A stretch of DNA of 64,000 nucleotides from positions 69,510-133,509 of the forward strand of contig JBDRBE010000004.1 in the NCBI GenBank assembly GCA_043823085.1, written 5' to 3'. Of this stretch, positions 8,429 through 36,943 are shown one piece after another (within the stretch, counting starts at the first letter, position 1; each line of letters starts with the position of its first letter). A program made the position numbers and the translations under genes. A model generated the notes under the pieces. It saw only the letters and a list, made by a program, of their open reading frames with translations. It was not told where the DNA came from and did not search any database. This DNA comes from Candidatus Levyibacteriota bacterium (GTDB lineage Bacteria; Patescibacteriota; Microgenomatia; Levybacterales; UBA12049).

Positions 8429-9316
8429 ATGACTGATTATCAAGAAGGAGCTAAAGCTTTTCAAAAAGAAGTATCAGGAGAGAGAACAAACAGTGTTTAT
8501 GCATATGCGATTGGAAGAAACCCGGAAATTAAAAATACTCCATCAGATAATTTCAAGGGAATTATTTCAAGCACATTAAAAATAATAGATACTCTTGAAG
8601 AATTTGGAGAAGAAACAGCGCATAATTTAACAATTCCGCGTGCAATTGCAGATGAAATTGGATTAATATGGGATTTTTCCGGACCGGGAACTTACGATAA
8701 ACCTTTTAAAGAGGATCGATACAAAGATCTTCCGTGGTCAAAATCGATGGATCAAAAGCGTTTAAGCCATACAGCTGTTTTGGAAAGAGCAATTGTTGAA
8801 TCGATAAAAGGAAATAGTTTTAGAGGATCGCTTGAAAATATCGTTGAAACGAAACACAGATTAAAAAAAGCCATAGGAGAAGTTGGGCCATATATATTAT
8901 ATAACGGTATACCAGAAGAAAATAGTGTAGTGAAGGATGTTCTTTCGCGTGAAGGAGTTGTAATTCCGGCGGATAAAGTAATTATTCCAAATTTTAAAAT
9001 TGATAATACACTTGATCAAGTAAAATCATTCGAATGGCCAAAACACGTTGAAAAGGGTAAGGCAATCGCTCTTGTTTCACATGCTCCTCATCTGGCTCGA
9101 ATAATTGGGCTTATAAATTATTTTAACCCTTTTTCAAAAGGAACAAAAATATACCTTTTTCCTTTACCGACTCCTCAAGAAGGAAGAGAAGAGTATGCGA
9201 AGATGGAAATTAGCGGACTTTTACATAATATGTTTGACTTAGAAAAATCAAACTTAATGCCTGCATACGAATATATGATTGGTGAAAAAAAATTGCAATT
9301 TTCCAAAGAACCGTAA
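8429..9316 (+). CDS. Hypothetical protein
   Basis: 295-aa ORF, co-directional and tightly spaced. No motif recognised. Confidence 0.45.
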   Translation: MTDYQEGAKAFQKEVSGERTNSVYAYAIGRNPEIKNTPSDNFKGIISSTLKIIDTLEEFGEETAHNLTIPRAIADEIGLIWDFSGPGTYDKPFKEDRYKDLPWSKSMDQKRLSHTAVLERAIVESIKGNSFRGSLENIVETKHRLKKAIGEVGPYILYNGIPEENSVVKDVLSREGVVIPADKVIIPNFKIDNTLDQVKSFEWPKHVEKGKAIALVSHAPHLARIIGLINYFNPFSKGTKIYLFPLPTPQEGREEYAKMEISGLLHNMFDLEKSNLMPAYEYMIGEKKLQFSKEP

Positions 9317-9479: not shown

Positions 9480-10541
9480 TTGGTCCAATTAATAAAAACA
9501 GTCGATCCAAAAGATCTTTTTACTAATTACCTTTACTTTTCTTCGGTCACAAAATCAATAGTAGATCATAGTAAAAAAACTTCAGCCTGTTTTATAGACA
9601 GATTCAAATTAAACCATTGTAATCTCGTTCTTGAAATTGGAAGCAACGATGGCGTTAATCTGCAATTCTATAAAGAAAAAGGGATGAACGTCCTGGGAAT
9701 TGACCCTGCAAAAAATATTGCAGAAATAGCCAATAAAAAAGGGATAAAAACAATTCCCGAGTTTTTTAACTTGGAATTGGCGAAAAAATTATCTTCGCAA
9801 GGGCTAAAAGCAGACTTGATTTATGGAGCTAATGTTTTTGCTCATGTTCCAAACATCGTAGATTTTGTAAAAGGTGTAAAAACTATCTTAAAAGATAACG
9901 GGACTTGCGTGTTTGAATTTCCTTATCTCAAGGGTTTACTTGAGAATAAATTTGACACTATTTATCATGAACATGTTTTTTATTATTCACTTATAGCATT
10001 AAAGAATTTATTTAATAAGGTAGATTTGGGAATATACGATGTTGAACAAATTCCAATGCAAGGTGGTTCACTTCGAATATTTATATCTCACAAAAAAAGG
10101 TTTAATGTTTCCCAAAATGTAAAAAAACTGCAGGAAAAAGAAATAAAAGAAAAATACAATAAGCTGGAAAGATATATGAAAATGGCAGAGGATGTTAATA
10201 ATTTAAAAAAAGAAACTATTAAATTTCTTAAAGATTTAAAAAGTAAAAATAAAAGTATCGCTGGGTATGGCGCTCCGGCAAAAGGAATAATTCTTCTTAA
10301 TTTTTTTAAAATAAGTAGATATCTTAACTATATTGTTGATAAATCTCCTGTAAAGCAAAATAAATATGTTCCGGGCATTCATTTTTTAATTTATTCTCCA
10401 TCCAAAATTAGGCAAGAAATACCCGACTACCTTTTTATTTTTCCGTGGAACATAAAAAGTGAGATATTGTCGGAATACTCCTGGTTTAAAAAACAAGGAG
10501 GAAAGTTTATTATTCCAATTCCCAGGCTACAAGTAATTTAA
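9480..10541 (+). CDS. Sugar C-methyltransferase body (TcaB9-like). True gene is probably 9332..10541 with a frameshift at the A10 tract.
   Basis: VLEIGSNDG SAM motif and YHEHVFYYS, paralogous to 934..2175. The upstream frame reads ..KKKKKIDLSIGFCPNCYLVQL, which completes the zinc ribbon. Confidence 0.7.
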   Translation: MVQLIKTVDPKDLFTNYLYFSSVTKSIVDHSKKTSACFIDRFKLNHCNLVLEIGSNDGVNLQFYKEKGMNVLGIDPAKNIAEIANKKGIKTIPEFFNLELAKKLSSQGLKADLIYGANVFAHVPNIVDFVKGVKTILKDNGTCVFEFPYLKGLLENKFDTIYHEHVFYYSLIALKNLFNKVDLGIYDVEQIPMQGGSLRIFISHKKRFNVSQNVKKLQEKEIKEKYNKLERYMKMAEDVNNLKKETIKFLKDLKSKNKSIAGYGAPAKGIILLNFFKISRYLNYIVDKSPVKQNKYVPGIHFLIYSPSKIRQEIPDYLFIFPWNIKSEILSEYSWFKKQGGKFIIPIPRLQVI

Positions 10542-10562: not shown

Positions 10563-11447
10563 ATGAAAGCGAATGTTATACAAAAAGAATTCCCTAATTT
10601 AAAAGTTTCTGTTTTATCAGTGGGAAAACATAAAAACAATCCTTTAAGAAATGAAGACGGATGGGTAGCAAAAGTAAATACGTTTGCAGTTATAGATGGT
10701 TCTGCTCCTCGTGTAGATTTAAGATTTGAAGGGAAAAGTAGTGCAAGATTTGCAACAGATGTGGTAAGAAAAGTTTTACTAACAACACCGCCGGATGTTA
10801 ATGGAAAAGAGTTAGTCTCAGAAATTACAACTGCTCTTAATAGAGAAATTAATAGAGAAGGCTATAGAAAGGTTATTCAAAAAAACAAAGAGGCAACTCC
10901 TGCGGCACTTTTTACAACCGCTCGAATTGTTGGAGATAAGGTTATCGTTACCGGGCTTGGGGATATTTCCTGTAGAATAAATGAGAAAGTAATTCACTCG
11001 GATCATTTCAAGTCGGAAGATTTGATGACAGAAAAAAGAATTTTGGCAATGAAAAACGCCAAAAAGAAAAATCCTTCAATTTCGGATGAAGAATTGGTTG
11101 CAATTGGCCAGAAGACAATAAAAGATGATTTAATATATCAGGTTAAAAATTACTTTAACAATTCAAATAGCGACTTAGGTCTTGGCATTATTGATGGGGA
11201 AGAAGTGCCGGAAAAATTCATAAAAGAGTACAAATATGATTTAAAAGATGTTAAAACATTGGAGTTATTTTCAGATGGCTATTATAGTTTCCCAGACTTT
11301 CCAAGTATTGATTTATGGGAAGAAAAATTTTTTCAAGGAGAAAAAGAAGATCCTTTAAGATGGAATAAATATCCGGCCGTTAAGGCAGTTCTTCCAGGTC
11401 AGTTTTCAGATGACAGAACAATTTTAATTGTTGCTTTCAATAAGTAG
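10563..11447 (+). CDS. PP2C-like (PPM fold) protein, possibly a degenerate phosphatase
   Basis: FAVIDGSAP, ARIVGDKVIVTGLGDIS and LFSDGYYS resemble PP2C motifs I, II and the C-terminal motif, but the canonical DGHGG is altered. Confidence 0.35.
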   Translation: MKANVIQKEFPNLKVSVLSVGKHKNNPLRNEDGWVAKVNTFAVIDGSAPRVDLRFEGKSSARFATDVVRKVLLTTPPDVNGKELVSEITTALNREINREGYRKVIQKNKEATPAALFTTARIVGDKVIVTGLGDISCRINEKVIHSDHFKSEDLMTEKRILAMKNAKKKNPSISDEELVAIGQKTIKDDLIYQVKNYFNNSNSDLGLGIIDGEEVPEKFIKEYKYDLKDVKTLELFSDGYYSFPDFPSIDLWEEKFFQGEKEDPLRWNKYPAVKAVLPGQFSDDRTILIVAFNK

Positions 11448-11453
11448 AAAAAA

Positions 11454-13820
11454 ATGAAGATACGATCACCTAAGATTATTTTAATAATAATAATTCTTCT
11501 TTTGACTATCATGCCTTTCTTTTGGCTTAAACCCGGCGAGATGGATTTAGGTGGCGATGGAGGCAGGCTTTACTTTTATGATCCGGTAAACCAGATTAAA
11601 AATTTGGCTTTATATAATAGGTGTGCTTTTGGTATAGGAACAATTGATTCTCCTTTTTCATACCTTCCTTTTATTGGAATACTGGCAATAATAAAGACAA
11701 TTGTTACGTCTTCGTATATTCTTATTTGTTTTCATAACGCATTAAAATTAGCTGTTGGTTTTCTTGCCGTTTATGCGATCGTAAAGCAGTTTATTGGCGG
11801 ATTTAATAAAAATAATTCCCTTGGTGTGGAACTTGCCTCAATGATTGCCGGGCTTTTTTATCTTTCCACCCCTGCGATGACGGAGAATTATGTAAAAGCT
11901 ATTGCAACTCATGATCAAGTATTTCTGAATCCTCTCATGTTTTACCTTTTATTGCGGTTTGCTCTTTCAGGAAAAATGAAATATATGTGGATTGCGCTTA
12001 TTGTAGGTCTTGTTTTTTCAGTGAGCTTTAGTTATATGGGCGCACCTTCCTTTTTTGCTTTTTACCCTCTTGCATTTATTTTTATTCTTTTCTATGGCAC
12101 TTTTATTAGGCATGTTAAGTTTCCATGGAGAAAATTACTGCTTACTTTTGTTTGGTTTTTTGGGCTGCATGCTTTTCATTTAATTCCTGAAGCTTCCGAT
12201 CTATTTACTTTTGGAAGCAATAGCAATACAAGAATGTTTAATATCGAAAGTATAACATCGCAAATCGGTTACTTTTATGCAATATTGCATATTCCAAAGA
12301 CGAGTTTTTATCTTTTCTCTTATTCCTTAACAAGATTTTTGGGACAAGTTGCCTTCGTTGTCCCTTTAATAGTTGTATTGGGATTGATATTTAATAAGAA
12401 GAAAGAAAAGACGATGCTTCTTGTTTTTGTATTCTTTTTAGTGACTTTCTTTTTTGTAACTGGGAAGGTAACGGTTGTTGGCATAAAAATTTATGAATGG
12501 TTTTTTCATGTGCCCGGCTTTTCAATGTTTCGAAATTTTTATGGGCAATGGCAATTTGTATATTATTTCTTTTATTCTCTTCTTTTTGGTTTGGCATTTT
12601 ATTCTGTGATATCTAGAATAAAGTCAAGAATCTTTTTAAAATGTCTTTTTCTGTTTCTGGTTATCTTTTTTACAATAAGCTCGTGGCAATTTATTAATGG
12701 AAGTCTTGTAAATCCATTTAGAGAAGATGCAAATGGGGTGAAAGCAGCAATTATTATGGATCCAAATTATGAAAACACGCTTAAATTTATTCGTTCAATG
12801 CCTGATGATGGAAAAATACTTGTTCTTCCTTTTAGCGATTCCTATATGCAAGTAATTCATGGATTAAATAACGGAGTCTACGTGGGACACTCGACAATTG
12901 GTCAGTTGACAGGAAAAAACGATTTTGCAGGTTATCAAGGCATTTTTCCCTATAGTGATACTTTTTGGCAATTAAGTAAAGAGAAAAACTATAAAGCGAT
13001 AAAAAAAATGTTTGGAATACTAAATATCCATTATATATTTTATAATTCTGACACAAGGATTTATGATACAGCATTTCCTGGTCGGCCATACTCGCCTAAT
13101 TATGTCCGAAAATTTATGCCTCCAGATCAGGCGGGGTATAAGGAATATATCGGAAACCTCTCGAGCGAAAAAATCTTTGAAAGCGGTTTTTATAGTGTTT
13201 ATAAGTTGGAAGATAAATCTTCGCTTCCTCATTTTTACACAGCCCAAAACATTCTTTTCTATAAAGATGATCCCAAATTGACAGGTTATGGAAAAACACT
13301 TGCCTTTTTTAAGGGAAATATTCCGGAAAGACCAGTTTATATAGAAAGTCAAAATTGCAAAAAATTGTTTAAGCAAGAGTTTTGTAGGGAAGATTCTAAT
13401 TTTCCAATGACTGATAGTCCAAAAATCCAATTCGAAAAAATTAATCCAACAAAATATAAATTAACTGTATCTAATGCAAATAACCCTTATATTCTCGTAT
13501 TCTCCGAAGCGTTTCACAGTAACTGGAAGATTTATGCCGGAGTTGCAAAAGAAAAGAATACATTCTTTGGTAAAGATATTTTTGAGACATTTAGTTTAAA
13601 CTCAATATCAAACGATAGACATTTTATTGCAAATGGTTATGCAAATGGTTGGTATATTAAACCGCAGGATTTAGGAGGAAAGCAAGAGTATGAACTTATA
13701 ATAGAAATGACAGGACAAAGAATATTCTATGTGAGTTTAATTTTTTCAGGCATTATATTCATAATCTTTGTTCTTCGGGGAATAATATTTTTTGATATAA
13801 TAAAAAAACGAAAAAAATGA
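11454..13820 (+). CDS. Polytopic membrane protein, YfhO-like architecture (putative GT-C glycosyltransferase), paralog A
   Basis: Many predicted TM helices. Conserved first-loop motif PFFWLKPGEMDLGGDGGRLYFYDP, a large extracytoplasmic domain, C-terminal NGYANGWYIKP, and a final TM anchor. Shared with 14139..17795. Confidence 0.6.
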   Translation: MKIRSPKIILIIIILLLTIMPFFWLKPGEMDLGGDGGRLYFYDPVNQIKNLALYNRCAFGIGTIDSPFSYLPFIGILAIIKTIVTSSYILICFHNALKLAVGFLAVYAIVKQFIGGFNKNNSLGVELASMIAGLFYLSTPAMTENYVKAIATHDQVFLNPLMFYLLLRFALSGKMKYMWIALIVGLVFSVSFSYMGAPSFFAFYPLAFIFILFYGTFIRHVKFPWRKLLLTFVWFFGLHAFHLIPEASDLFTFGSNSNTRMFNIESITSQIGYFYAILHIPKTSFYLFSYSLTRFLGQVAFVVPLIVVLGLIFNKKKEKTMLLVFVFFLVTFFFVTGKVTVVGIKIYEWFFHVPGFSMFRNFYGQWQFVYYFFYSLLFGLAFYSVISRIKSRIFLKCLFLFLVIFFTISSWQFINGSLVNPFREDANGVKAAIIMDPNYENTLKFIRSMPDDGKILVLPFSDSYMQVIHGLNNGVYVGHSTIGQLTGKNDFAGYQGIFPYSDTFWQLSKEKNYKAIKKMFGILNIHYIFYNSDTRIYDTAFPGRPYSPNYVRKFMPPDQAGYKEYIGNLSSEKIFESGFYSVYKLEDKSSLPHFYTAQNILFYKDDPKLTGYGKTLAFFKGNIPERPVYIESQNCKKLFKQEFCREDSNFPMTDSPKIQFEKINPTKYKLTVSNANNPYILVFSEAFHSNWKIYAGVAKEKNTFFGKDIFETFSLNSISNDRHFIANGYANGWYIKPQDLGGKQEYELIIEMTGQRIFYVSLIFSGIIFIIFVLRGIIFFDIIKKRKK

Positions 13821-14152
13821 AAATTACTATATTTTTTTTGAGGAAGTATAAATCAGTTATCATGACTTTGGTTGTGTTGGGAATTATTTCGGATATATTC
13901 TTGATTAGGTTTAAATCAGACTTAATTACGTTTGCGATTCTTGCATTGGTATTTTTTTCCTTTAAATTTTATAAAATTACGAGTAAGATGACGTTCCTTC
14001 TTGGTATTATTCCTACTGTCATTATTTTCCTTTACTTTCTTGTGGATTCAGAATCTCTTTTTGTCGAAAAGGCAGCTATTTGGCTTTTTTTACTATTAGG
14101 GTTAGGTATTATTCAGGAACTATTCATATCCAAAAAAAATGAAAAAATATAG
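13817..14152 (+). CDS. Small 4-TM membrane protein (GtrA-like flippase candidate)
   Basis: 111 aa with four hydrophobic segments. Paralogous to 33899..34249. Wedged between two YfhO-like genes with overlapping stop/start. Confidence 0.45.
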   Translation: MKITIFFLRKYKSVIMTLVVLGIISDIFLIRFKSDLITFAILALVFFSFKFYKITSKMTFLLGIIPTVIIFLYFLVDSESLFVEKAAIWLFLLLGLGIIQELFISKKNEKI

Positions 14153-17100
14153 ATTTGCAATTATTTTAGCAGTTATCCTATTTTTTATTCCATTTTTTTG
14201 GTTAAAACCCGGAGAAATGAATCTGGGTGGCGATTCGGGAAGACTTTATTTTTATGATCCTGGTTCGTATCTTAATTTACGCGTACTTTATAATTATTTA
14301 GGAAGCGGTAACGGCACAGAAATAATTTACTACACGCATTTTCCTTATGTTGCTCTGTTGTTCTTCATCAAACTCATTTTACAATCACCAACAATGCTTA
14401 TTTCTTTTTTTAATGGTCTTACCTTAAGCGTTGCATTCTTTTTTGTCTATCTTTTCGTAAAAGAACTCCTGAGTACAAATGAAAATTCAATTAAATCAGG
14501 ATTCGTTGAGATGTCTTCAATTCTTGCCGGTCTTTTTTACATCCTTTCGCAAATTTCTATTTATAGCGGTTGGGAGAGGCCAATTACTACTTTCAATCAA
14601 ATGTTTCTTAATCCTTTTATGGCATTTTTACTTCTAAAGTTTATGTTAACCCAAAAAAAAGAATATCTAATTTCAGCATTACTAGCAACATTTGTTTTTT
14701 CTGTAAACTTTTCTTTAGTTGGCGCCCCGCCATTTTTTGCTTTTTATCCAATAACAGTACTTTTCCTCTTTCTTTATGCGAAGTTGGTTAGGAAGGTATC
14801 TTTTAAATGGAAATCATTTGTTGCTGGTATAATTCTTTTTCTATTTTTACATGCCTTCCATTTAGTTAATACAATAGATGGTGTTTTCTCTCTTAGCTCC
14901 TCTTATAATTTGACAGTTTTTGCTCTGCAGGGTGAAGCTTCGCGTAATGGGCTTGATTATTTTATTTCTGTGGCGAGTAATATAAAAGCAAGTAGAATTT
15001 GGATGAGTCTTGCTCAGTTTCAAATACAGGCTTACTTTGCGATATTTATTATCTTTCCGGCAGTTTTAGTTGTTTCTTTTTTCCTAAATAAGGGAAAAAC
15101 GTTACTTTTTACAGGATTATTTTTTCTTATCGTTTTGTTCTTTGCTTCTGCAATTACTCAAACTGGCTTTTTCTTCTATAGACAATTGTTTTTAATACCC
15201 GGTTTTAATATGTTTCGTAATTTTCATGGACAGTGGTCATATGTTTTCTTTTTCTTTTACGCATTACTTTTTGGGCAAGCAATCGCCATCGTTGCAAACA
15301 AATCAAGCAAAAGAATCGCCTTGGCTATTTTTACTATTTCTAGCATGGTAATTATTGGGTTTGGCACACCGCTTTTTACAGGAAGTATCTCAATTCCGAT
15401 GGACGCGGAGAAGACAGTGCGTACTAGTTTTAAAATGGATCCAGCCTACGAGCAGGTCTTACAATACTTTAAATCAAATCTAGTTGATGGAAAGGTTCTG
15501 ATGTTTCCGCTAACAGACCATGGTTATCAAATCTTCAAGGGTAAAGAAGGTGGAGTTTATAAAGGGCTTCCGACAATTTCAATTTTAGATGATAAGTCGG
15601 ATTTTGGAGGATACGAAACATTGGGTCCATTTAAAGATATTTTTTTAACTTCCATCAAAAACAATGACTATGAAACTTTTAAAAAAATGCTTTCGGCGAT
15701 GAATATCAAATGGATATTCTATAATTCCGATCCATATATTTATGGCGAACCTTTTTTATCAACGTTGTATGGTTTTGTGTCAAATTACTCACCGAAAGAC
15801 CAACAAGAATATAAGTCATTTATCGAAAAGTTACCGATTAATAAATTAATTGATTTTGGAGAAAAATATCATATCTATTCGGTTAATGACGATATATATT
15901 TCCCTCATATTTATACTTCGACAGATATAGTGTTTACTACCAACCAAATTAATTTGATGTTCGATCCTGAATTTCAAAAAGATATGTATCGGACATTACT
16001 CCCTGTGGAAAGCTCTACAAGTAAAAAAGATTCTATGATTATCTATGGTTTACAAAAATCATTCTTAACCCAAATTAAAGACAATCGTCATTTTCATACA
16101 CATAATCCTTTTATTGGTAGAGCGCTTGATGATTTATTTTATCCGCTAGTAATAGTTAGGGAAAAATTTGATCTTGCTAGACTTAGAAATAAACCCGATC
16201 AGTATCTTGATTTTTCACTCTTTTTGCTTTCGAAAAGAATTCAAGAATTGAATCGTTTTGGAATAAATATGAAAGCCGGTCAGGGTTCTTGGCAAGAACC
16301 CTCCCCGTGGGATTTAAAGAGATGGTTTTCATATAATAGTTGGAATGCAAGCCTAGTGCGTTATGAAAACGCAGTGAATGCGATTATTGATTGGATTGAT
16401 AATTCTGATATTCCAGAAGAAAAGAAAATGCTTAATAAATTAAAAGTTAATGAACAGTTTTCTAAACATGAGCTTCACCTAATAAGTGATGTATATGATT
16501 TTAATAAAGAGGATAACGAAAAAAAATACCTACTTTCTGTTGTTAACAGAATGTTTGAAAGACTTTATAAGAAAGTAAACGTTACAGTTAGCGATCCTTC
16601 TTTATGTATGTATAAATTGCCGACTTTCACCAACCGCGAGGGAGAATATACAGTTTATTTTCGCGGAAAAAACATTCCAGACATTGATCAATCTCAGATA
16701 TTTACTAGGCTCGGAGATCAAACATCAAAAACTCAATTTGCAAACATTAGGGTTGATGAGAGGAGTGAAGCCCAAGTGATTTTAAAGATACCAGTTTCAA
16801 ACATTGTAAAAGAAGAAAAATGGAGTAGTAGCGGCGTCCCAATAGAAGGTTTGAATGGTATTACCTCGTTATCTTTTAGTAATGGATTAGGAGGTTCAAT
16901 AGATGGTCTTACTCTGCAAATTCCAAACTGGATACCGGATTATGCCTATCTTATTTCTTTTGACTATAATACCAATGGCGATGATTTTATTTTTTCATTT
17001 GCTGATAAAAAATCTTCAGAGAAGGCTTTTAAAAAGGTTAATCAAAGATTATTATTCGAAAAAAGATTAAATGCAAAAAATTTTAAGACCCATCAGTCAA

Positions 17101-17795
17101 TTATTTTTGCCGAGGGAGATACTATCGGTGGTTTTTTAAGAATTGTTCCATTCTCCCCAAGAGATACAAGCGAAATAAAAATAAGAAATCTGAAAGTGCA
17201 AAAAATTGAGTATCCAGAACTTTTATTAAGAAAAATTGTTATAGAGCAAAATAAAAGCGAACCACCTCAAGTTACTTTTACAAAAATAAATCCTACAAAA
17301 TATGTTTTAAATATAAAAGGAGTAAAGAATCCCTATTCTCTTATTTTCTTGGAGCAGTATAGTGCAAATTGGAAATTATTCGATACAAGTAGCAATACTA
17401 ATTCATTTGCAGGGGAGATATCGAGATTCTTCGGGCAAATAGGAAAATTATTGATTGGGCTTTTTATAAAAGATAATTCTAAAAATACTATAGTGGCAAA
17501 CTACTTTAATGATAAAGTAAAAGAAGGGGAGTCTAAGAATATATTTATAGAACCAAGCACTTTTGAAACTTGGGGGAAAAATGCTGTTTTTGAACGTGAG
17601 CATATTTCTGTCAATGGATATGCAAATGCATGGTATATAAAACCTAATGGAATGGGTGGAAAGACAGATTATACATTAATTCTCGAGCTTAAAACGCAAA
17701 AACTGTTTTACCCGGCGCTTTTACTGTCACTGGTGACTTTCTTCTCACTCGTGCTTTATTTAATTAAAAAGCTCTTATGGCAAAAAAAACGATAG
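14139..17795 (+). CDS. Polytopic membrane protein, YfhO-like (putative GT-C glycosyltransferase) with a very large extracytoplasmic domain, paralog B
   Basis: 1218 aa. PFFWLKPGEMNLGGDSGRLYFYDP N-terminal motif, C-terminal VNGYANAWYIKP, and a final TM anchor. Confidence 0.6.
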   Translation: MKKYRFAIILAVILFFIPFFWLKPGEMNLGGDSGRLYFYDPGSYLNLRVLYNYLGSGNGTEIIYYTHFPYVALLFFIKLILQSPTMLISFFNGLTLSVAFFFVYLFVKELLSTNENSIKSGFVEMSSILAGLFYILSQISIYSGWERPITTFNQMFLNPFMAFLLLKFMLTQKKEYLISALLATFVFSVNFSLVGAPPFFAFYPITVLFLFLYAKLVRKVSFKWKSFVAGIILFLFLHAFHLVNTIDGVFSLSSSYNLTVFALQGEASRNGLDYFISVASNIKASRIWMSLAQFQIQAYFAIFIIFPAVLVVSFFLNKGKTLLFTGLFFLIVLFFASAITQTGFFFYRQLFLIPGFNMFRNFHGQWSYVFFFFYALLFGQAIAIVANKSSKRIALAIFTISSMVIIGFGTPLFTGSISIPMDAEKTVRTSFKMDPAYEQVLQYFKSNLVDGKVLMFPLTDHGYQIFKGKEGGVYKGLPTISILDDKSDFGGYETLGPFKDIFLTSIKNNDYETFKKMLSAMNIKWIFYNSDPYIYGEPFLSTLYGFVSNYSPKDQQEYKSFIEKLPINKLIDFGEKYHIYSVNDDIYFPHIYTSTDIVFTTNQINLMFDPEFQKDMYRTLLPVESSTSKKDSMIIYGLQKSFLTQIKDNRHFHTHNPFIGRALDDLFYPLVIVREKFDLARLRNKPDQYLDFSLFLLSKRIQELNRFGINMKAGQGSWQEPSPWDLKRWFSYNSWNASLVRYENAVNAIIDWIDNSDIPEEKKMLNKLKVNEQFSKHELHLISDVYDFNKEDNEKKYLLSVVNRMFERLYKKVNVTVSDPSLCMYKLPTFTNREGEYTVYFRGKNIPDIDQSQIFTRLGDQTSKTQFANIRVDERSEAQVILKIPVSNIVKEEKWSSSGVPIEGLNGITSLSFSNGLGGSIDGLTLQIPNWIPDYAYLISFDYNTNGDDFIFSFADKKSSEKAFKKVNQRLLFEKRLNAKNFKTHQSIIFAEGDTIGGFLRIVPFSPRDTSEIKIRNLKVQKIEYPELLLRKIVIEQNKSEPPQVTFTKINPTKYVLNIKGVKNPYSLIFLEQYSANWKLFDTSSNTNSFAGEISRFFGQIGKLLIGLFIKDNSKNTIVANYFNDKVKEGESKNIFIEPSTFETWGKNAVFEREHISVNGYANAWYIKPNGMGGKTDYTLILELKTQKLFYPALLLSLVTFFSLVLYLIKKLLWQKKR

Positions 17796-19888
17796 TAACA
17801 TTATTATTTCTGATTCCTATACTTTTTATTTTTAAAAATTGGTTTATTTTTCCTTTTCTTTCCGGGCATGATTGGCCTTATTTTTTTAAAGAGACACTTT
17901 CTGATTATTCGTTTTTTCCTCCTGCATGGTCTCCAACGTTGGGGATTGGACTTGGCGGAGAAATGACAAATTATGGCTTGGGTACATTTATTTATGCGTT
18001 AGTTTCATTATTTGTAAATTCAATTGGCTTGCCATGGGAACTGGTATATAAGATTTTTATTTTTGGGTTGTTTCTTATTCTCTCCGTTTTTTCAAGCGTT
18101 TATTTATTACGTACGGTTTTAAAGAATCCAGGTAAACTGCAATTGTTATTGTCCGTACTTATATTTAGTGCAAATACCTATATTCTTATGGTTTTAGATG
18201 GGGGGCAGATGGGAGTAGCCCTCGCTTATAGCATATCTCCGCTCGTTCTAGGAACCTTTATAAATCTTGTAAATAACTTTGTTTCCATTTCGCCTAATTT
18301 CAAATTTCATTCATTCGGCAAGCTCAGGACAAGAATTTCAAATTTCAAATTTCCAATATTGGCTAGTTTGGTTTTAACCATACAAATTATGTTTGACTTT
18401 CGGATAGCAGTTCTTACAACTGTAATAGGTCTATTTTATGCAATGTATTATTATTTTTTTATTGAACGGTTTGAGCTTGGATTATTTGTTAAACATTGTG
18501 TATTAACTGGATTTATTATTCTGGGTTTCAATATATATTGGGTTTTTCCAATTGTTGCCTTGCGTTCACTTCCGTCCCAGGAGTTGTTAAGTAGTTTGAG
18601 TTCGGTTTCTGGTTTTCAATTTTTTTCATTTGCGACATTTTCGCAAACCTTATCGCTTCTACAACCTAATTGGCCGGAAAATATTTTTGGGAAGGTATAT
18701 TTTATGAGAAGTGAGTTTATTATATTGCCTGTTTTGGCGTACTTAGGGTTATTGTTTATTAAAACCAAAGCGCTGAAAAATGCAAAACAATACGCAGAAC
18801 ACCGCAGAATTTTATTTTTTGCACTCCTGGGATTGGTGGGTGCTTTTTTGGCAAAAGGGGCAAATCCACCATTTGGAGAGATAAATACCTGGTTATTTAC
18901 GAATGTGCCATTTCTCTATTTCTTTAGAGATTCAACGAAGTTTTACTTATTAACCATGTTATCTTACAGTGTTTTGATACCATTTACAGTTTATTCTATT
19001 AAAACATGGTTAAGTTCAAAACTCCCCACTTCGCCAAGGCTTTGTGGGGCAAGCAAAACTCAAAATTATTTATTTTATCTTGTGCCAATGATTGCAATTC
19101 TTTATTTATTATTCCTGATTCGTCCTATTTTTTTAGACAAACTTAATGGGACATTTAAAAGGCATGAAATTTCAAAAGAATACCTTGAGTTAAAAGATTT
19201 TTTAAACAGCCAAAAAGATTTTTCGAGAACATTATGGATACCAAGGCAAGATCGTTACAACTTTTACTCCTGCCTTCATCCGGCAGTGTCCGGAGAGGAT
19301 CTTTTTTCGGCAACTAATTCGGCTGAGATAATAAGGAAATTAAAAATGGATCAAACTCGTGAATTGCTTTCTAATTTTTCGATAAAATATATAATTATTC
19401 CATTTGATTCATTTGGAGAGATTTTTGTAAAAGACAGAAAATATAATGAAAAAGAATATTCTTCCACGGTGAATCTTCTTAATTCAATTAATTGGCTTAA
19501 AAAAATAGAAGATTTTGGTAATATCATTGTCTATGAAACTCCAGACCACAAGGATCATTTTTGGTTAAACGGACAAGGTAAACTTTCATATACAGCTATA
19601 GGCCCGTCAGAATATGAAGTAAAGGTGTCAGCAGAAAAAGCTTCGAAAGTAATTTTTACCGAAGCCTATAATCCTTATTGGATAACAGACACCGGTAGCG
19701 ATAAATTAACAAGTAAAAAAACAGAATACAATGCAAATAGTTTTTTATTGGAAAAGGGAGGAGTTTACGAATTAAAAGTATACTTTTCAAAACAGAAATA
19801 TTATAACTTTGGAAAATTGATTACGTTGCTTTTTATCGTAGCTTTTTCGTTTACTGCGATATTTCTTAGAAAGAAAACTAATTTATGA
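17777..19888 (+). CDS. Polytopic membrane protein, YfhO-like, paralog C (shares the C-terminal domain, divergent N-terminus)
   Basis: 703 aa. C-terminal FTEAYNPYWI matches SEAFHSNWKIY and LEQYSANWKLF of paralogs A and B. Ends with a TM anchor. Confidence 0.55.
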   Translation: MAKKTIVTLLFLIPILFIFKNWFIFPFLSGHDWPYFFKETLSDYSFFPPAWSPTLGIGLGGEMTNYGLGTFIYALVSLFVNSIGLPWELVYKIFIFGLFLILSVFSSVYLLRTVLKNPGKLQLLLSVLIFSANTYILMVLDGGQMGVALAYSISPLVLGTFINLVNNFVSISPNFKFHSFGKLRTRISNFKFPILASLVLTIQIMFDFRIAVLTTVIGLFYAMYYYFFIERFELGLFVKHCVLTGFIILGFNIYWVFPIVALRSLPSQELLSSLSSVSGFQFFSFATFSQTLSLLQPNWPENIFGKVYFMRSEFIILPVLAYLGLLFIKTKALKNAKQYAEHRRILFFALLGLVGAFLAKGANPPFGEINTWLFTNVPFLYFFRDSTKFYLLTMLSYSVLIPFTVYSIKTWLSSKLPTSPRLCGASKTQNYLFYLVPMIAILYLLFLIRPIFLDKLNGTFKRHEISKEYLELKDFLNSQKDFSRTLWIPRQDRYNFYSCLHPAVSGEDLFSATNSAEIIRKLKMDQTRELLSNFSIKYIIIPFDSFGEIFVKDRKYNEKEYSSTVNLLNSINWLKKIEDFGNIIVYETPDHKDHFWLNGQGKLSYTAIGPSEYEVKVSAEKASKVIFTEAYNPYWITDTGSDKLTSKKTEYNANSFLLEKGGVYELKVYFSKQKYYNFGKLITLLFIVAFSFTAIFLRKKTNL
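18334..18354 (+). repeat. Tandem heptamer (AATTTCA)x2 plus one imperfect copy inside paralog C. A second pair lies at 18296-18309.
   Basis: Read directly from the sequence. Encodes SNFKFPI. Confidence 0.7.
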
Positions 19889-20835
19889 GACTTAATCCTA
19901 ATTGCTTAAGCTGCGGTTCTTCAAAAACATGCAAGACATATAAAACAAAAGATCGAATGTTTGGGGGCAATAAGATTTTTAATTATTTCGAATGCAAAAA
20001 TTGCTCTGTTTGCTTCTTGTATCCTCAGCTATCATTGAAGGAGTTTGGAAAATACTATCCGAGCTCAAAATATTATTCATATTCAAATAGTAATAAAAAA
20101 GATTTTTTTGGTACGATAAGGGCATATTTAGTGCGTAGTTATTATAAAGAGAATTTTTTTTTCAGATTATTTTCTTTCTTCGTGATAAGTGTTCCGGCAA
20201 TTCCAAGCGCGCCAATTGGAAAAATATTAGATGTAGGATGCGGAACTGGTGAAACCCTTTCTCTTTTAAAAGAAGTGGGGTGGAATGTTTACGGATTAGA
20301 TTTGGATAAAGATGCAATAAATATAGCGAAAAAACGAGGAATTACAGCTAAAATAGGCAGTTATGAAGAAATAGAATCTTTTCCTAAAGATTATTTTGAT
20401 GCAATTCGTTTATATCATGTTATAGAGCACATTGGCGATCCTTCAGTTGCACTCAAACTTATTTATTTACGCCTTAAACCCGGCGGACAGCTAATTTTGG
20501 GAGCACCAAATTACAATAGTATAGTCAGAAAAATATTTGGCTCTTTTTGGTACAATCTTGATGCTCCTAGGCATCTATTTCTTTTTTCGCCAAAAAATTT
20601 AATAGCACTTGGAAAAAAAAACGGATTCATAGATCCTCATGTTGATTATTTTGCAGCTGGCGGCATTTTGGGAAGCATACAATATATAATAAATGAAAAA
20701 TTTAATAAAAAGGTTGATTTGTTGTCGAATATTTTTTTAGTTTTGCTTTTTTTTATTCCAGAATTGTTGACAAATAAACTGTCGGCAGGGGATATTTTTA
20801 CTCTAAGAATGTACAAAAAAAAGTATAGAGTGTGA
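19885..20835 (+). CDS. Class I SAM-dependent methyltransferase with an N-terminal Cys-rich zinc ribbon
   Basis: CLSCGSS...CKNCSVCF followed by ILDVGCGTGETL. Confidence 0.65.
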   Translation: MRLNPNCLSCGSSKTCKTYKTKDRMFGGNKIFNYFECKNCSVCFLYPQLSLKEFGKYYPSSKYYSYSNSNKKDFFGTIRAYLVRSYYKENFFFRLFSFFVISVPAIPSAPIGKILDVGCGTGETLSLLKEVGWNVYGLDLDKDAINIAKKRGITAKIGSYEEIESFPKDYFDAIRLYHVIEHIGDPSVALKLIYLRLKPGGQLILGAPNYNSIVRKIFGSFWYNLDAPRHLFLFSPKNLIALGKKNGFIDPHVDYFAAGGILGSIQYIINEKFNKKVDLLSNIFLVLLFFIPELLTNKLSAGDIFTLRMYKKKYRV

Positions 20836-20961: not shown

Positions 20962-21588
20962 ATGATTACCAAATACAATCAATACAGAAATGACTTTTTT
21001 AATAAACTCAGGGTTGATTTTGAAAAAGGAAAAAAAATATTAGATGTTGGATGTGGAGATGGGTCAGATGCGCAAGTCTTCAGAAAATCATATGGGCTTG
21101 ATTTTTATGGAATCGATATTTATAAAAATCCAAACATTAAAAAAAATAAGCTAAATTTTAAAATTGGAACAATTCATAAAATTCCTTATAAGTCAGAATG
21201 TTTTGATTATGTCTATGCACACGATGTCCTCCATCATATAGAAGAAAAAAATCTATCGGATAATTCTATCTTATTAGGTCTTAAAGAATTAAGAAGAGTA
21301 TGCAAAAAAAATGGATGCATAGTGATTGTTGAGGCAAATAGATATAATCCCTTATTTTATCCGCATATGGTTTTAATGAAAAAACATAACCATCTAACTA
21401 AATCGAGGTTTAAGAGATTGGTTAAGGAAGAATTTAAAAAAGATAATATACTTTTCAAATTCTTTGAAGCACATTTATATCCAGCTAAACTTATTTATAT
21501 TTTTAAAATATATGAATATTTTGCAGAGAAGATTTTTCCCAAGTGGCCTCTAGCATATAACTGCGCAGTAATTATTAAAATATCGTAA
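20962..21588 (+). CDS. Class I SAM-dependent methyltransferase
   Basis: ILDVGCGDGSDA motif I and acidic motif II YAHDVLHHI. Confidence 0.65.
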   Translation: MITKYNQYRNDFFNKLRVDFEKGKKILDVGCGDGSDAQVFRKSYGLDFYGIDIYKNPNIKKNKLNFKIGTIHKIPYKSECFDYVYAHDVLHHIEEKNLSDNSILLGLKELRRVCKKNGCIVIVEANRYNPLFYPHMVLMKKHNHLTKSRFKRLVKEEFKKDNILFKFFEAHLYPAKLIYIFKIYEYFAEKIFPKWPLAYNCAVIIKIS

Positions 21589-33045: not shown

Positions 33046-33147
33046 AAGAGAAAAGATAAGATATCTGGCAAAAGCAAATTGCAACGTGCTAGACGATATA
33101 GTATAATTCAAAAAAACGTAAGAAAACGCTTTTTTAGTCTACTTTTT

Positions 33148-33894
33148 ATGGAAATTTCACAATATTATCAAACAGGCCGCTATGTGAATAGAAATATTAA
33201 TGAATCAGAAATCATCTACCGCATGAAATATCTTATAAAAGCTCTTAAGGGTTATAGGTTTAAAACTGTTTTGGATGCGGCTTGTGGAGACGGAGGACTA
33301 GGAAAACTGATAAAAGAAAAATGGGGAGTTAAAGTTTATGGTGCAGATATATCTAGAAAAGGAGTCCGTTTGGCAAGAAAGTTTGGAGTAGAGGCAAAAG
33401 TTTGCGATCTTTCCGAAAAAATTCCTTTTAAAGACAAATCATTTGACATGGTTTTCTCAAGTGAATCAATAGAGCATTTTGTTAATCCGGACAAGTTTTT
33501 AAGGGAAGTGAATCGAGTTTTAAAACCAAAAGGAATAATCGTTATTACCAGTCCAAATCTTTCTTCATGGCTTAATCGTATACTTTTTTTATTTGGTATT
33601 TATCCGATAGCTTTAGAGGCAAGTACAGAAAAACTAGTGGGACTTGGAATATTATCAAAATTTGCTAATGGAGATCAGGTGGTTGGTCATATTCATTTAT
33701 TTAACTATCGCGCACTTCGTGATATTCTTCTTTACCATGGATATGCAATTAAAAAAGTTGTAGGAATGCCGATGGATTATGAAAGCCCGCGTTCGCGCTT
33801 GTTGACAAAAATGTACCGCATTGTTGATTCATTCTTTTCAGCTTTCATACCATTGAGCTCAAATTACGTTGTAGTCGCCCGAAAGATAAAATAA
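33148..33894 (+). CDS. Class I SAM-dependent methyltransferase
   Basis: VLDAACGDGGLGKLI and VLKPKGIIVITSPN. ATG start chosen; the ORF track starts at the TTG at 33079. Confidence 0.65.
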   Translation: MEISQYYQTGRYVNRNINESEIIYRMKYLIKALKGYRFKTVLDAACGDGGLGKLIKEKWGVKVYGADISRKGVRLARKFGVEAKVCDLSEKIPFKDKSFDMVFSSESIEHFVNPDKFLREVNRVLKPKGIIVITSPNLSSWLNRILFLFGIYPIALEASTEKLVGLGILSKFANGDQVVGHIHLFNYRALRDILLYHGYAIKKVVGMPMDYESPRSRLLTKMYRIVDSFFSAFIPLSSNYVVVARKIK

Positions 33895-33898
33895 AAAA

Positions 33899-34249
33899 AT
33901 GCAAAGAAGAGAAAAAATCAAATATTTCTCAATATTACTTTTGATAGTTTTTTTCGCAGGCTATATTACGGATATATTTTTTATAAAACCAGTGTTGAGC
34001 TATACTGATTGGCCTTCGGATATAAGATTATTTGCCCTTTTATTTTTGTGGCTTTTTATTGGAAAAATTTCAAATTTTAAAGGCATGGCAACCTTTAAGC
34101 TGACTTTAATATTTGTAGTTATTCTTTCTTTTCTTTTTATTTTTTTTCGGACTCATTTTTCAACCGAGCGATTGGCGTCGTGGGTATTTGTCTATTTAGC
34201 AACAGGAGTTATTCAACAATTGTTCGAAACAAGGAAAAAAACTGTTTAA
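33899..34249 (+). CDS. Small 4-TM membrane protein (GtrA-like flippase candidate), paralog of 13817..14152
   Basis: 116 aa. ITDIFFIK / ..GVIQQLFETRKK align with ISDIFLIR / ..GIIQELFISKKN of the paralog. Confidence 0.45.
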   Translation: MQRREKIKYFSILLLIVFFAGYITDIFFIKPVLSYTDWPSDIRLFALLFLWLFIGKISNFKGMATFKLTLIFVVILSFLFIFFRTHFSTERLASWVFVYLATGVIQQLFETRKKTV

Positions 34250-34253
34250 GATA

Positions 34254-35288
34254 CTAATTTTTTGCCAAATAGAAATGAAGGTTGGTATAGTCGTATAGCG
34301 CGTTGTCAGGATCCTTAAAACCCATTATTAAATCATCCAAAGATTTAAACTCCGGTAAAAGACCTAGATTTGTTCCATGATGTTGAATAAGAAATGTTTT
34401 TATAAGTATCCACTTCACAATGCTCGGCATTCTTATAAAATAAGGAGGATAGCATGAAACAGCAAATCTAAGTTTAAATCCAAGTTTTTTAAACATATTA
34501 AGGAACTCAACAATTTTTTTCTCTTTTAAAAACATTGCATGAAATTCCATGATGATATGTACGTTTTGAAGTTTTTTAAACATGTCGTAGTTGCCTTTAA
34601 CCAAGTTGTATTCGTATCCTTCGATGTCCCATCTAAAAAGAAGGTTTTTTTGAGGGATTTTATATTTTGCGAACAATGTTTTTAAGGAATACATATCTAT
34701 TCTTTCTTTAACAAAGTTGGATGAGTATCTTTCATTTCCAGTGACCCCCTCTATTTGCGTATAATTTCCTTGGGGAGGAACAATCAGATTTATTTTTTTA
34801 TTTTTTTCTCCAATCGCCGCATGAATGAGCGTAATGTTAGATACATTGTTTAATTTTATGTTCTCTTTGAGGAGAGCCATATTCCTGGAAACCGGCTCAA
34901 CAGCATAAATATGCATTTTCTTCTTGAGAGCTTGTTTGAGGATAGCATTTTCATAGCAGACATAATAACCAATATTTGCACCAATTTCTACTATTGTATT
35001 AATTTTTTGCCTGTATTCTTTTAGGAATTTTTTAAAATATAGAACATTAGGATATTCTCTAAGTCTTCCAATAAAAAGATCAATTGCTATCCCTTCATCG
35101 TTTAAATCAAGCATCATTTTGTAGTTTATTTTATCGATTTTGATATCAACTATTGGATTTTTATTGATTTTTTTAGCGCGATTTAACCCGGGGTAAAATC
35201 TATAAATGTAGAGTGCGTAGCAAAATACTCCCCGAATTCTTACAAGAAAATAATTTCTTAAATTGATAAAGTTTGATTTCTTTAGCAT
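34254..35288 (-). CDS. FkbM-family methyltransferase
   Basis: VEIGANIGYYVCYE matches the FkbM-domain signature. Confidence 0.6.
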   Translation of the reverse strand: MLKKSNFINLRNYFLVRIRGVFCYALYIYRFYPGLNRAKKINKNPIVDIKIDKINYKMMLDLNDEGIAIDLFIGRLREYPNVLYFKKFLKEYRQKINTIVEIGANIGYYVCYENAILKQALKKKMHIYAVEPVSRNMALLKENIKLNNVSNITLIHAAIGEKNKKINLIVPPQGNYTQIEGVTGNERYSSNFVKERIDMYSLKTLFAKYKIPQKNLLFRWDIEGYEYNLVKGNYDMFKKLQNVHIIMEFHAMFLKEKKIVEFLNMFKKLGFKLRFAVSCYPPYFIRMPSIVKWILIKTFLIQHHGTNLGLLPEFKSLDDLIMGFKDPDNALYDYTNLHFYLAKN

Positions 35289-35410: not shown

Positions 35411-36346
35411 ATGTATCTTATGTTAAGTGTTATAGTACCGCTTTTTAATGAGGAGGAAAGTCTGCCGTTTCTTTTGGCTGAAATTAAAAAAGCATTATTT
35501 GGCATTTCTGGAGAATATGAAGTTATTTTTGTCGACGATGGCTCAAAAGATAAATCATTGGATATTCTAAAAAAATTTGCCAAAGACGATAAAAATGTCA
35601 GGATTTTTTCTTTTCGCAAAAACATTGGTAAGGCAGAAGCGCTAACCTTAGGCTTTCAAAAAGCAAGAGGTGATTATATCGTTACTCTAGATGCTGATTT
35701 ACAGGATAAACCTTCGGAAATATTCAAGCTTATAAAAAAAATAAAAGATGGCTATGATTTAGTCTGCGCATGGAGAAAAGACAGGCAAGACCCTTTTTTA
35801 AAAATAATTTCTTCAAAATTATTTAATTTTCTTGCCGGATCTTTCTGGGGGCTTAAATTGCATGACTATAACTGCGGATTAAAACTTTATAATCAAGAAT
35901 CTGTAAAAGGTCTTCATCTTTATGGAGGAATGCACAGATTTATTCCGTTAATTATCCATCAACAAGGATTTAAGGTGACCGAAGTGGCTGTTTCTCACGA
36001 GAAAAGAAAGTTTGGAAAGTCAAAGTACGGATTTTCAAAACTTTGGAAAGACCTGCCCGATTTATTTACGATGCTTTTTTTAACAAAATATGGTAACCGT
36101 CCATTGCATTTTTTTGGCATGGTCGGATGCGTTCTTTTATTGCTTGGTGTATTAATTTTAGGTTATTTAACTGTCATTCATTTCCAGGGCCAGGCTATAG
36201 GAACTAGGCCATTACTGTTTTTTGGCATGCTGCTTATCTTAAGTGGATTTCAGGTTTTTTTTAGCGGTTTCCTGGCAGATTTGATGATAAATAAATCTTA
36301 TAAAAAAGATGCGATAGAATTTCCTCTAAAATACTCAAGCGAGTAA
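35411..36346 (+). CDS. Polyprenyl-phosphate glycosyltransferase (GtrB/ArnC/DPM1-like GT2 with C-terminal TM helices)
   Basis: LSVIVPLFNEEESLPFL..FVDDGSKDKS, DADLQDKP, and two C-terminal TM helices. Confidence 0.75.
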   Translation: MYLMLSVIVPLFNEEESLPFLLAEIKKALFGISGEYEVIFVDDGSKDKSLDILKKFAKDDKNVRIFSFRKNIGKAEALTLGFQKARGDYIVTLDADLQDKPSEIFKLIKKIKDGYDLVCAWRKDRQDPFLKIISSKLFNFLAGSFWGLKLHDYNCGLKLYNQESVKGLHLYGGMHRFIPLIIHQQGFKVTEVAVSHEKRKFGKSKYGFSKLWKDLPDLFTMLFLTKYGNRPLHFFGMVGCVLLLLGVLILGYLTVIHFQGQAIGTRPLLFFGMLLILSGFQVFFSGFLADLMINKSYKKDAIEFPLKYSSE

Positions 36347-36943
36347 TTACTTCTCAACAAGTATCATAACCCATGGGAAAGGAGATTTTGAATTTTGAAC
36401 TATTAAATTTTGTTTTTGCATAAGTTGTTTAAACGTAGATAAATTCCAGTGATTAATGTGCCCTTCGTCATTTCCTAGTCTTTTTACATTTTTTCCCCGT
36501 AAGAAATTGCTTATTCTAAAAAACGGTTCATTTGGGACAGAAATTATGGTATATTTTTTGGAAACTCTCATAATTTCGGAAATTGCTTTTTTTGGCTCTT
36601 TTAAGTGTTCCATAACTTCGAGACAAAGAACAAGATCAAAAGAGTTGTCTTTATAAGGAAGTTTGTAAATATCAGCATATTTTAAAGAAAGGTTGGGGAA
36701 TAGTTCAGCTCCTATTGATAATGAATTGTGTGAATTATCAACGCCTTCAAGTTTTTTACCAACATTATTGATGAGGAATTCATTCAAAGTAAAACCTTCC
36801 CCGCAGCCGACATCAAGAATAGTTTTTGGATTAAGCGGTTTTACCAAAGAAAAAAGAGCTTGGTAGAAGTTTTTTATTAAAAACTTTTGCACGGGGTTTT
36901 TGGTTGTATGTTTTAGAAAATTAGAAGATTGATTTCCAATCAT
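36347..36943 (-). CDS. Class I SAM-dependent methyltransferase
   Basis: ILDVGCGEGFTLNEF and LVLCLEVMEHL. Confidence 0.65.
   Translation of the reverse strand: MIGNQSSNFLKHTTKNPVQKFLIKNFYQALFSLVKPLNPKTILDVGCGEGFTLNEFLINNVGKKLEGVDNSHNSLSIGAELFPNLSLKYADIYKLPYKDNSFDLVLCLEVMEHLKEPKKAISEIMRVSKKYTIISVPNEPFFRISNFLRGKNVKRLGNDEGHINHWNLSTFKQLMQKQNLIVQNSKSPFPWVMILVEK

Follow-up and report, generated by a model that had tools for sequence, protein, structure and literature searches.

Multi-component transmembrane glycosylation relies on a glycosyltransferase (GT) of the GT-A type that synthesizes a C55-phosphate (C55-P) sugar, a flippase and a GT-C transferase (PMC8035078). In Firmicutes, YfhO (PF09586), CsbB and GtcA constitute a three-component system for the glycosylation of teichoic acid. 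The closest solved relative of the proteins described here is the mycobacterial alpha-(1->3)-arabinofuranosyltransferase AftD (PF11847 GT-C_AftD, DUF3367; PDB 6w98 and 6wbx), in which a separate four-helix domain follows the single transmembrane (TM) helix TM12 (bioRxiv 10.1101/2019.12.22.885152). In this study, a stretch of 64,000 nucleotides from a Candidatus Levyibacteriota bacterium (contig JBDRBE010000004.1, hereafter the window) was analyzed, and a module of four overlapping genes, which encode the large membrane proteins A, B and C and the small membrane protein s1, was characterized. The Levyibacteriota are part of the Patescibacteria, for which Candidate Phyla Radiation (CPR) is another name. 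From the fold, the topology, the conserved residues, a gene order that recurs between loci and the finding that orthologs of one GT2 gene repeatedly lie nearby, we consider it probable that A, B and C are GT-C glycosyltransferases that belong to a multi-component extracytoplasmic glycosylation module, together with a donor made by the GT2 enzyme and a small partner protein. The genes and motifs of the module are as follows:

11454 to 13820, + strand: open reading frame (ORF) of protein A, 788 amino acids (aa), predicted GT-C-fold membrane glycosyltransferase
11514 to 11585, + strand: first-loop motif of A, PFFWLKPGEMDLGGD35GGR38LYFYD43P (residues 21-44), right after TM1 (helix 6-23)
12513 to 12539, + strand: PGFSMFRNF loop of A (residues 354-362), recognized by conservation and by the A/C profile alignment
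13632 to 13664, + strand: C-terminal ectodomain motif of A, NGYANGWYIKP (residues 727-737), directly before the terminal TM helix
13817 to 14152, + strand: ORF of the small four-TM protein s1, 111 aa, four hydrophobic segments
14139 to 17795, + strand: ORF of protein B, 1218 aa, related to A as a paralog; its ectodomain measures ~773 aa
14190 to 14261, + strand: first-loop motif of B, PFFWLKPGEMNLGGD32SGR35LYFYDP (residues 18-41), read from the translation
15936 to 16982, + strand: B-specific insertion relative to A (~residues 600-948), delimited by BLASTP segments
17777 to 19888, + strand: protein C, 703 aa, predicted membrane glycosyltransferase with the GT-C fold, from a second subfamily that is distantly related
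17861 to 17887, + strand: first-loop motif of C, SGHD32WPYFF (family consensus IGGDWPYFF), which aligns with GGD35 of A

The positions and lengths of the four reading frames (788, 111, 1218 and 703 aa) are exactly those of the original prediction, which had been made from the sequence alone. Consecutive genes overlap by 4, 14, 19 and 4 nucleotides (nt), and overlaps of this size fit a single operon. Protein A is identical to ABH816_02490, listed as hypothetical on a 431-kb contig of a Candidatus Levyibacteriota metagenome-assembled genome (MAG), and protein C is identical to ABH816_02500. The architecture that had been proposed for the three large proteins was found in all of them: a polytopic N-terminal domain, a large loop (336, 773 and 220 aa in A, B and C, respectively) and one C-terminal TM helix. 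The N-terminus is rich in lysine and arginine and leads into TM1. In protein A, the polytopic domain covers residues 1 to ~415, the extracytoplasmic part, composed of alpha/beta and beta-sandwich domains, covers residues ~420 to 750, and the last TM helix spans residues 754 to 787. The outside domain of B, which had been singled out as unusually large at about 800 aa, does measure ~773 aa. Moreover, members of the A family occur as natural fusions in which a further domain stands directly after the C-terminal TM helix, namely a GT1 (GT-B) domain in P0047 (= L002 12445-16221) and an S-adenosylmethionine (SAM) methyltransferase domain in P0071 and P0119. Since domains of these kinds are of the cytoplasmic type, the C-terminus can be placed in the cytoplasm and the large loop outside it.

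Proteins A and B are clearly paralogs, sharing 39% identity over ~600 N-terminal residues (BLASTP, A 11-602 and B 8-599, E 4e-121) and 27% identity in the C-terminal module (A 564-774 and B 949-1206, E 4e-26). The gap between these two segments indicates that B carries an insertion of ~350 residues. This insertion is conserved among the B-type orthologs, with Y668, E675, R700, W735 and F941 among the residues retained, and a weak CBM_4_9 match, not located within the protein, was found in 2 of 20 such orthologs (best E 1.1e-3); the extra domain may serve in acceptor binding. The first-loop motif that A and B had been said to share, PFFWLKPGEM[DN]LGGD[GS]GRLYFYDP, is present at residues 21-44 of A and 18-41 of B. 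Protein C, however, had been counted as a third paralog, and here the claim holds only at a distance, as its BLASTP similarity to A or B is not significant (E 0.07 and 0.047). Homology appears at the level of profiles: those of the A family (52 sequences) and the C family (51 sequences) align end to end (hhalign probability 99.3%, E 4.1e-20, 606 columns), which places GGD35 of A on GGD32 of C and PGFSMFRNF of A on PGFxxFRD of C. The same gradation applies to the C-terminal motif that all three proteins had been credited with; it reads NGYANGWYIKP in A and NGYANAWYIKP in B, but C has only looser counterparts (FTEAYNPYW and YNANSF).

The fold of these proteins was recognized by structure. No relative turned up in the PDB when A, B, C and the small protein served as queries, either as single sequences or as family profiles; the sole matches, to bestrophin at E ~1e-3, were spurious. 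AlphaFold2 models of A and C, built on family alignments, reached a mean local confidence (pLDDT) of 87.5 and 86.2, respectively, and a global confidence (pTM) of 0.87 in both cases. The polytopic N-terminal membrane domain has the GT-C core fold. AftD was the top structural match by both methods used (Foldseek E 9e-10, probability 1.00), with values in the structural comparison of 15.5 and 607 for A and of 14.8 and 541 for C, and the alignment takes in the soluble domain (607 residues) at 10-13% identity. This bears out the suggestion, already made from the sequence, of a relationship to AftD. The likeness extends to the order of parts, which in AftD are likewise an N-terminal GT-C membrane domain, a soluble GT-C domain, one or more beta-sandwich domains and a single TM helix. 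However, several differences are apparent beside the low identity. AftD has three carbohydrate-binding modules (CBMs), for which A and C are too short, and B has its insertion of ~350 residues. The AftD chain continues into TM13-16, which bind acyl carrier protein (ACP); the chains of A, B and C have no such helices, and a separate gene for a four-TM protein follows. Furthermore, the host in the present case is a Patescibacterium without arabinogalactan.

The sequence-level links of these families to named families appear faint but consistent. The consensus sequence of the C family scored 22.7 bits (E 2.8e-5) against PF11847, just under the cut-off of 26; the consensus sequences of A, B and the remote A-like subfamily gave no match to this model, and no protein of the window reaches its cut-off. 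YfhO (PF09586) is matched neither by A, B and C, even at E <= 1, nor by the family consensus sequences, and at E <= 0.01 it is matched by none of 52 A-family and by 2 of 51 C-family homologs (best E 1.1e-6). In addition, four of the 51 C homologs matched DUF6541, and TMEM260-like was matched weakly by two of the 52 A-family members and by the B consensus. The original prediction had called the proteins YfhO-like. As a description of architecture the term fits, since YfhO, likewise a large GT-C protein, joins a polytopic N-domain to a sizeable outside domain and ends in a TM helix (general knowledge and PMC8035078), and the two matching C homologs agree with it, but as a family assignment it fails for every protein of the window. 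A, B and C are thus GT-C-fold proteins of families that lie outside current profile libraries, structurally nearest to AftD and only remotely YfhO-like.

The pattern of conservation points to an active site. In the A family, G33, G34, D35, R38, Y42, P44, W691, N727, A730, N731 and W733 are invariant; in the C family, D32 and W22 are invariant; and at least 90% of the 20 B-type orthologs keep G30, G31, D32 and R35. GGD is also the commonest form in the remote A-like subfamily, and a PGFxxFR[ND] pattern is common to the A, B, remote A-like and C subfamilies. The acidic first loop, which had been put forward as a feature to be looked for in homologs, is therefore conserved in these. Its Asp, which is D35 in A and D32 in both B and C, comes 9-12 residues behind TM1. 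The persistence of an invariant or nearly invariant Asp and of conserved polar loop residues across very divergent subfamilies suggests catalysis, and the first-loop Asp is a candidate catalytic residue. In AftD, K39 and D41, which were among the conserved residues mutated around the presumed active site, are indispensable (bioRxiv 10.1101/2019.12.22.885152). Judged by residue numbers, these two residues suggest that in AftD as well a conserved basic and a conserved acidic residue lie in the same loop, just after TM1.

A search of one genome per species yielded 53 homolog loci, nearly all of them in Patescibacteria (Levyibacteriota, Gottesmanbacteria, Microgenomates, Parcubacteria, Saccharimonadia and Moraniibacteriota). 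Two layouts recur. In the first, found in at least 13 loci besides the window, an A gene, optionally preceded by an extra A, is followed by one or two small genes, by B (1190-1290 aa) and by C. In the second, found in 16 loci, a remote A-like protein (~23% identity) is followed by a ~330-aa protein and by C. The ~330-aa protein begins with a TM helix, which an ectodomain of ~180 aa and another TM helix follow, and ends with the small four-TM domain; it had been entertained as a fusion to a GT2 enzyme, an idea dropped in view of this composition and of the lack of any Pfam match. Taken together, the two layouts define a constant core of an A-type GT-C protein, a small-domain protein and a C-type GT-C protein. 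B, whose orthologs of 1190-1290 aa were found in 19 loci, is an elaboration of the first layout, and the named loci of that layout are mostly MAGs of the Microgenomates group. A small gene comes behind A or ahead of B in nearly all related loci; it follows 22 of 32 A genes and precedes 16 of 19 B genes.

Mycobacterial Aft and Emb paralogs build arabinan. In the Mycobacteriales, EmbA, EmbB, EmbC and AftA-D, and elsewhere Pmt1-Pmt2, are GT-C paralogs that are encoded together and act on one polymer, some of them as heterodimers; AftD is accordingly one among several GT-C paralogs building a single polymer. The co-occurrence of A-type and C-type genes in both conserved layouts resembles this arrangement. 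The sequence families, donors and acceptors differ, however, and the resemblance extends to gene co-occurrence and not to a heteromer. By analogy with Aft and Emb, the presence of three divergent GT-C enzymes in a fixed order suggests that each makes its own linkage or has its own acceptor.

Remote copies of the module were also seen beyond Patescibacteria, in a Limnocylindrales MAG (L051) and an Omnitrophota MAG (L032), which points to horizontal transfer or to a wider distribution. In the former, genes for an A-like and a C-type protein accompany those for a 348-aa small-domain protein and a GtrB-type GT2. Among the TPA_asm MAG records with the module, many (L005, L009, L011-L015, L017, L024 and others) bear the title 'uncultured Gammaproteobacteria bacterium', which is probably a placeholder or a wrong taxonomic label.

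Two further genes of the window bear on the supply and the handling of the donor:

33899 to 34249, + strand: small protein s2, 116 aa, flanked by the genes of a SAM methyltransferase and, in convergent orientation, an FkbM methyltransferase
35411 to 36346, + strand: GT2 polyprenyl-phosphate glycosyltransferase of the ArnC/GtrB/PgfS/CsbB kind, with PF00535 and NCBIfam matches

The polyprenyl-phosphate glycosyltransferase that had been assigned to position 35411 was confirmed as a GT2 of this kind. It matches PF00535 (E 4e-37), and its matches to ArnC, GtrB, CsbB and PgfS cover the full length, with E values from 1e-52 to 7e-42 (ArnC, NF007986, E 1.2e-52; PgfS, E 6.8e-42). The protein nevertheless falls below every equivalog cut-off, so that the transferred sugar cannot be named. 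In six other loci (L007, L028, L043, L049, L051 and L055), an ortholog of this enzyme (389-446 bits) is found no more than 10 kb from the module, and in the first of these the gene order is A, small protein, GT2. The co-occurrence that had been anticipated was thus observed in these loci, and it lends indirect support to the use of a polyprenyl-phosphate donor by these presumed enzymes on the extracytoplasmic face. A genomic link to a GT2 polyprenyl-phosphate sugar synthase and to a small four-TM protein is also characteristic of the YfhO system. In that system, however, there is one GT-C gene where the present module has three in tandem, and the small partner found here is not of the GtrA/GtcA family. 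The original prediction spoke of a triplicated three-component system. It is the GT-C component that is triplicated and not the whole system: of its components, GT-C and GT2 both occur, repeatedly at a short distance from each other, and the small protein is only a candidate translocator.

On the reading that we prefer, the polytopic N-terminal domains of A, B and C would bind a polyprenyl-phosphate-linked sugar in the outer leaflet, and an active site at the membrane surface would be built from the PGFxxFR[ND] loop and the first-loop Asp of each protein. The large extracytoplasmic domain, bigger by ~350 residues in B, would hold the acceptor glycan, and the final TM helix would bring the chain back to the cytoplasm. 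The donor would most likely be made by the GT2 enzyme encoded at 35411-36346 on the cytoplasmic face and would then cross the membrane, possibly by way of the small protein. A lipid-linked core of a glycopolymer might be assembled by the cytoplasmic GT1, GT2 and GT4 enzymes, the sugar-nucleotide enzymes and the methyltransferases of the cluster, whereupon A, B and C may act in turn on the outer face to extend or decorate this surface glycopolymer. The four-TM protein would be a dedicated partner, either a translocator of lipid-linked sugars or a membrane subunit of the GT-C proteins.

Several observations weigh against this proposal. None of A, B, C and s1 scored above threshold in the Pfam or NCBIfam scans, so that no GT-C profile was reached, and the scans gave only noise-level matches to DUF6600 and MmpA. 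The GtrA model (PF04138) is unmatched by s1 at E <= 1 and by s2 at E <= 0.01. The GT2 gene of the window is 15.5 kb away from C, and of ~50 other loci, many of them truncated, only 6 were seen to have an ortholog within 10 kb. Finally, the active site is placed by sequence position and predicted topology.

The small protein deserves separate consideration. The original prediction described a 111-aa four-TM protein between A and B with a paralog at 33899, which proved correct: s1 and s2 share 34% identity (E 7e-8), and s2 scored 92.6 bits against the hidden Markov model of the small family. Protein s1 contains four hydrophobic segments in its 111 residues, and both of its termini are predicted to be cytoplasmic (N-in/C-in). 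When 1.84 billion proteins were searched with a six-member profile, 352 representative clusters reached E <= 1e-3, most of them 100-135 aa long. Among 95 members, D35 is invariant and E84, W89 and G97 are present in at least 90%; hydropathy and charge distribution would place D35 and E84 in short outer loops. The prediction had taken the small protein to be a flippase of the GtrA type. The format agrees with this (GtrA-like proteins have ~120 aa, 3-4 TM segments and GT-C or GT2 neighbours), and the GtrA/GtcA family also resembles the small family in its length of ~110-120 aa, four TM helices, N-in/C-in orientation, association with GT-C and GT2 genes and occasional tandem arrangement, which fits a dimer. 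No homology to GtrA was found, however. The family is absent from the 25 most-matched families for the 95 members at E <= 1, the small-family consensus gave no GtrA match at E <= 0.1, and an hhalign comparison with P22 GtrA returned a probability of 0.1%, with sensitivity limited by the single-sequence target. Membership in GtrA, having failed in three sequence tests, was rejected. Matches of the small family to DUF6056 (12 of 95 members, best E 4e-4), Peptidase_M50B and TgpA_N were also set aside as weak matches of hydrophobic segments and not homology.

It is quite possible, if somewhat short of likely, that the small protein is no flippase and acts instead as a structural subunit of the GT-C proteins, in the manner of TM13-16 of AftD, or as an anchor for cytoplasmic methyltransferases. 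In A and B the chain closes with one TM helix, and the gene that follows supplies four more, an order that AftD shows within one chain, and by this analogy the small gene may be an AftD-like four-helix domain encoded separately. In a Gottesmanbacteria MAG (L052 12124-16134), a 1336-aa protein joins an N-terminal TM helix and ectodomain, the small domain (219-315) and a C-type GT-C protein, so that the small domain is fused N-terminally to the latter; such a natural fusion argues for a physical association of the two. The lack of GtrA homology and the position of the small domain behind an N-terminal TM helix and ectodomain in the 16 remote loci agree with the same reading. The small domain is also fused to C-terminal methyltransferases of the FkbM/RfbT type (L015 2910-4028, P0275, P0285 and P0332), and s2 is flanked by two methyltransferase genes (33079-35288), which suggests that a membrane-bound sugar intermediate is methylated. 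GtrA/GtcA is, by comparison, fused to a GT2 synthase, while the fusion partners of the small family are the FkbM methyltransferase, an ectodomain or a GT-C protein. The conserved residues of the two families differ too, those of the small family being D35 and E84 of the predicted outer loops, W89 and G97. On the other hand, the small family has no sequence similarity to any PDB chain, AftD included, and the format of four TM helices in ~110 aa with N-in/C-in orientation is that of small translocators of lipid-linked sugars (GtrA, ArnE/ArnF). The small genes stand in tandem pairs in seven loci, as a dimeric translocator also might, and a module that binds a lipid-linked sugar would equally suit a fusion to a methyltransferase. 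The data therefore fit a dimeric translocator or binder of lipid-linked sugars and a membrane subunit equally well.

More tentatively, and with rather low confidence, it can be proposed that the small family is an obligate class of GT-C partner unrelated to GtrA, that A-type and C-type proteins form a heteromeric machine with it, and that this machine builds a heavily methylated glycopolymer specific to Patescibacteria. As part of this proposal, the small family would be a new translocator of lipid-linked sugars or a split-off equivalent of TM13-16 of AftD. If true, the glycopolymer would be important for the cell envelope or the host attachment of Patescibacteria.

The nature of the acceptor admits a further alternative, in which A, B and C transfer sugars to proteins such as S-layer proteins, pilins or lipoproteins, as oligosaccharyltransferases and the PMT/TMEM260 enzymes do. 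We regard this as unlikely. The weak TMEM260-like matches of A-family members and of the B consensus speak for it, as does a GT-C protein of the PMT_2 type encoded in the same cluster. However, the top structural match, with the soluble domain included, is the polysaccharide-building AftD, and the cluster, in which many genes for GT enzymes and sugar modification accompany one for a Wzy_C-like protein, resembles a polysaccharide locus. A motif of the WWD type of oligosaccharyltransferases was not seen on reading the translations, although no motif search was made. These counter-points leave the acceptor unsettled. It is very improbable that A, B and C keep the GT-C fold without sugar transfer, as envelope scaffolds or lipid handlers comparable to MmpA or to PIGU in the glycosylphosphatidylinositol (GPI) transamidase, for the matches of A and C to NCBIfam MmpA ('trehalose lipid delivery protein'; E 1.4e-3 and 3.7e-5, with the PGFSMFRNF region of A involved) extend over ~100 residues and score 17-23 bits where the cut-off is 210, the near-invariant first-loop Asp and the conserved polar loop residues suggest catalysis, and the best structural matches are all active transferases.

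The GT-C fold and the logic of the system, which our preferred reading of A, B and C as GT-C glycosyltransferases takes over, are already known. What is new is the existence of two large GT-C families centred on Patescibacteria and outside Pfam and NCBIfam, of a conserved three-enzyme module, and of a dedicated small partner family without detectable relationship to GtrA. At E <= 0.001, homologs number 649 proteins for the A query and 484 for the C query, and no Pfam or NCBIfam model covers them. A search of open-access papers and bioRxiv found none that links YfhO or AftD to Patescibacteria or that describes these families. Patescibacteria make up a large share of bacterial diversity, and their cell surface, which is the interface with the host, is almost uncharacterized. 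Through the module, two large families of 'hypothetical proteins' acquire names and active-site residues that can be tested, and it illustrates that an AftD-like architecture exists far outside Actinobacteria. Moreover, the tightly linked small family (352 clusters) may represent a new translocator of lipid-linked sugars or a new subunit of GT-C enzymes, and the alignments could seed new profile models and improve the annotation of many MAGs.

The window as a whole is a single long surface-glycan locus, with a GC content of ~30-38% and nearly all genes on the + strand. It encodes a series of sugar-nucleotide enzymes (a nucleotidyltransferase of the NTP-transferase type, 4,6-dehydratases and epimerases, a UDP-glucose dehydrogenase, a DegT aminotransferase and a UDP-GlcNAc 2-epimerase) and several enzymes of the GT1/GT4 and GT2 types. 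There are at least eight SAM methyltransferases as well, C-methyltransferases and the FkbM type among them, and this number in one glycan locus indicates that the glycan is unusually heavily methylated. Their genes are located as follows:

934 to 2175, 9480 to 10541, 19885 to 20835, 20962 to 21588, 33079 to 33894, 34254 to 35288, 36347 to 36943, and others: SAM-dependent methyltransferase genes

Two soluble ORFs lie just upstream of A, at 8429-9316 (+, 295 aa) and 10563-11447 (+, 294 aa), the latter of which stops 6 nt before the start of A; neither has a Pfam match, and the latter is also without a PDB relative. Further downstream, 37185-38057 (+, 290 aa) and 38633-40192 (+, 519 aa) encode polytopic membrane proteins with ~9 TM segments each. 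The 519-aa protein, which has orthologs in L038 and L044 and no Pfam, NCBIfam or PDB match, could be a further GT-C protein or the missing flippase. A 1074-aa protein encoded at 42787-46011 (+) has ~20 predicted TM segments and a weak match to Wzy_C (O-antigen ligase/polymerase; E 2.4e-4); it is unusually large for that family and has an ortholog at L007 18129-21266. Its gene is followed by those of the PMT_2-type GT-C protein (46008-47465) and of a GT4 enzyme (47462-48676), both of which overlap the gene before them.

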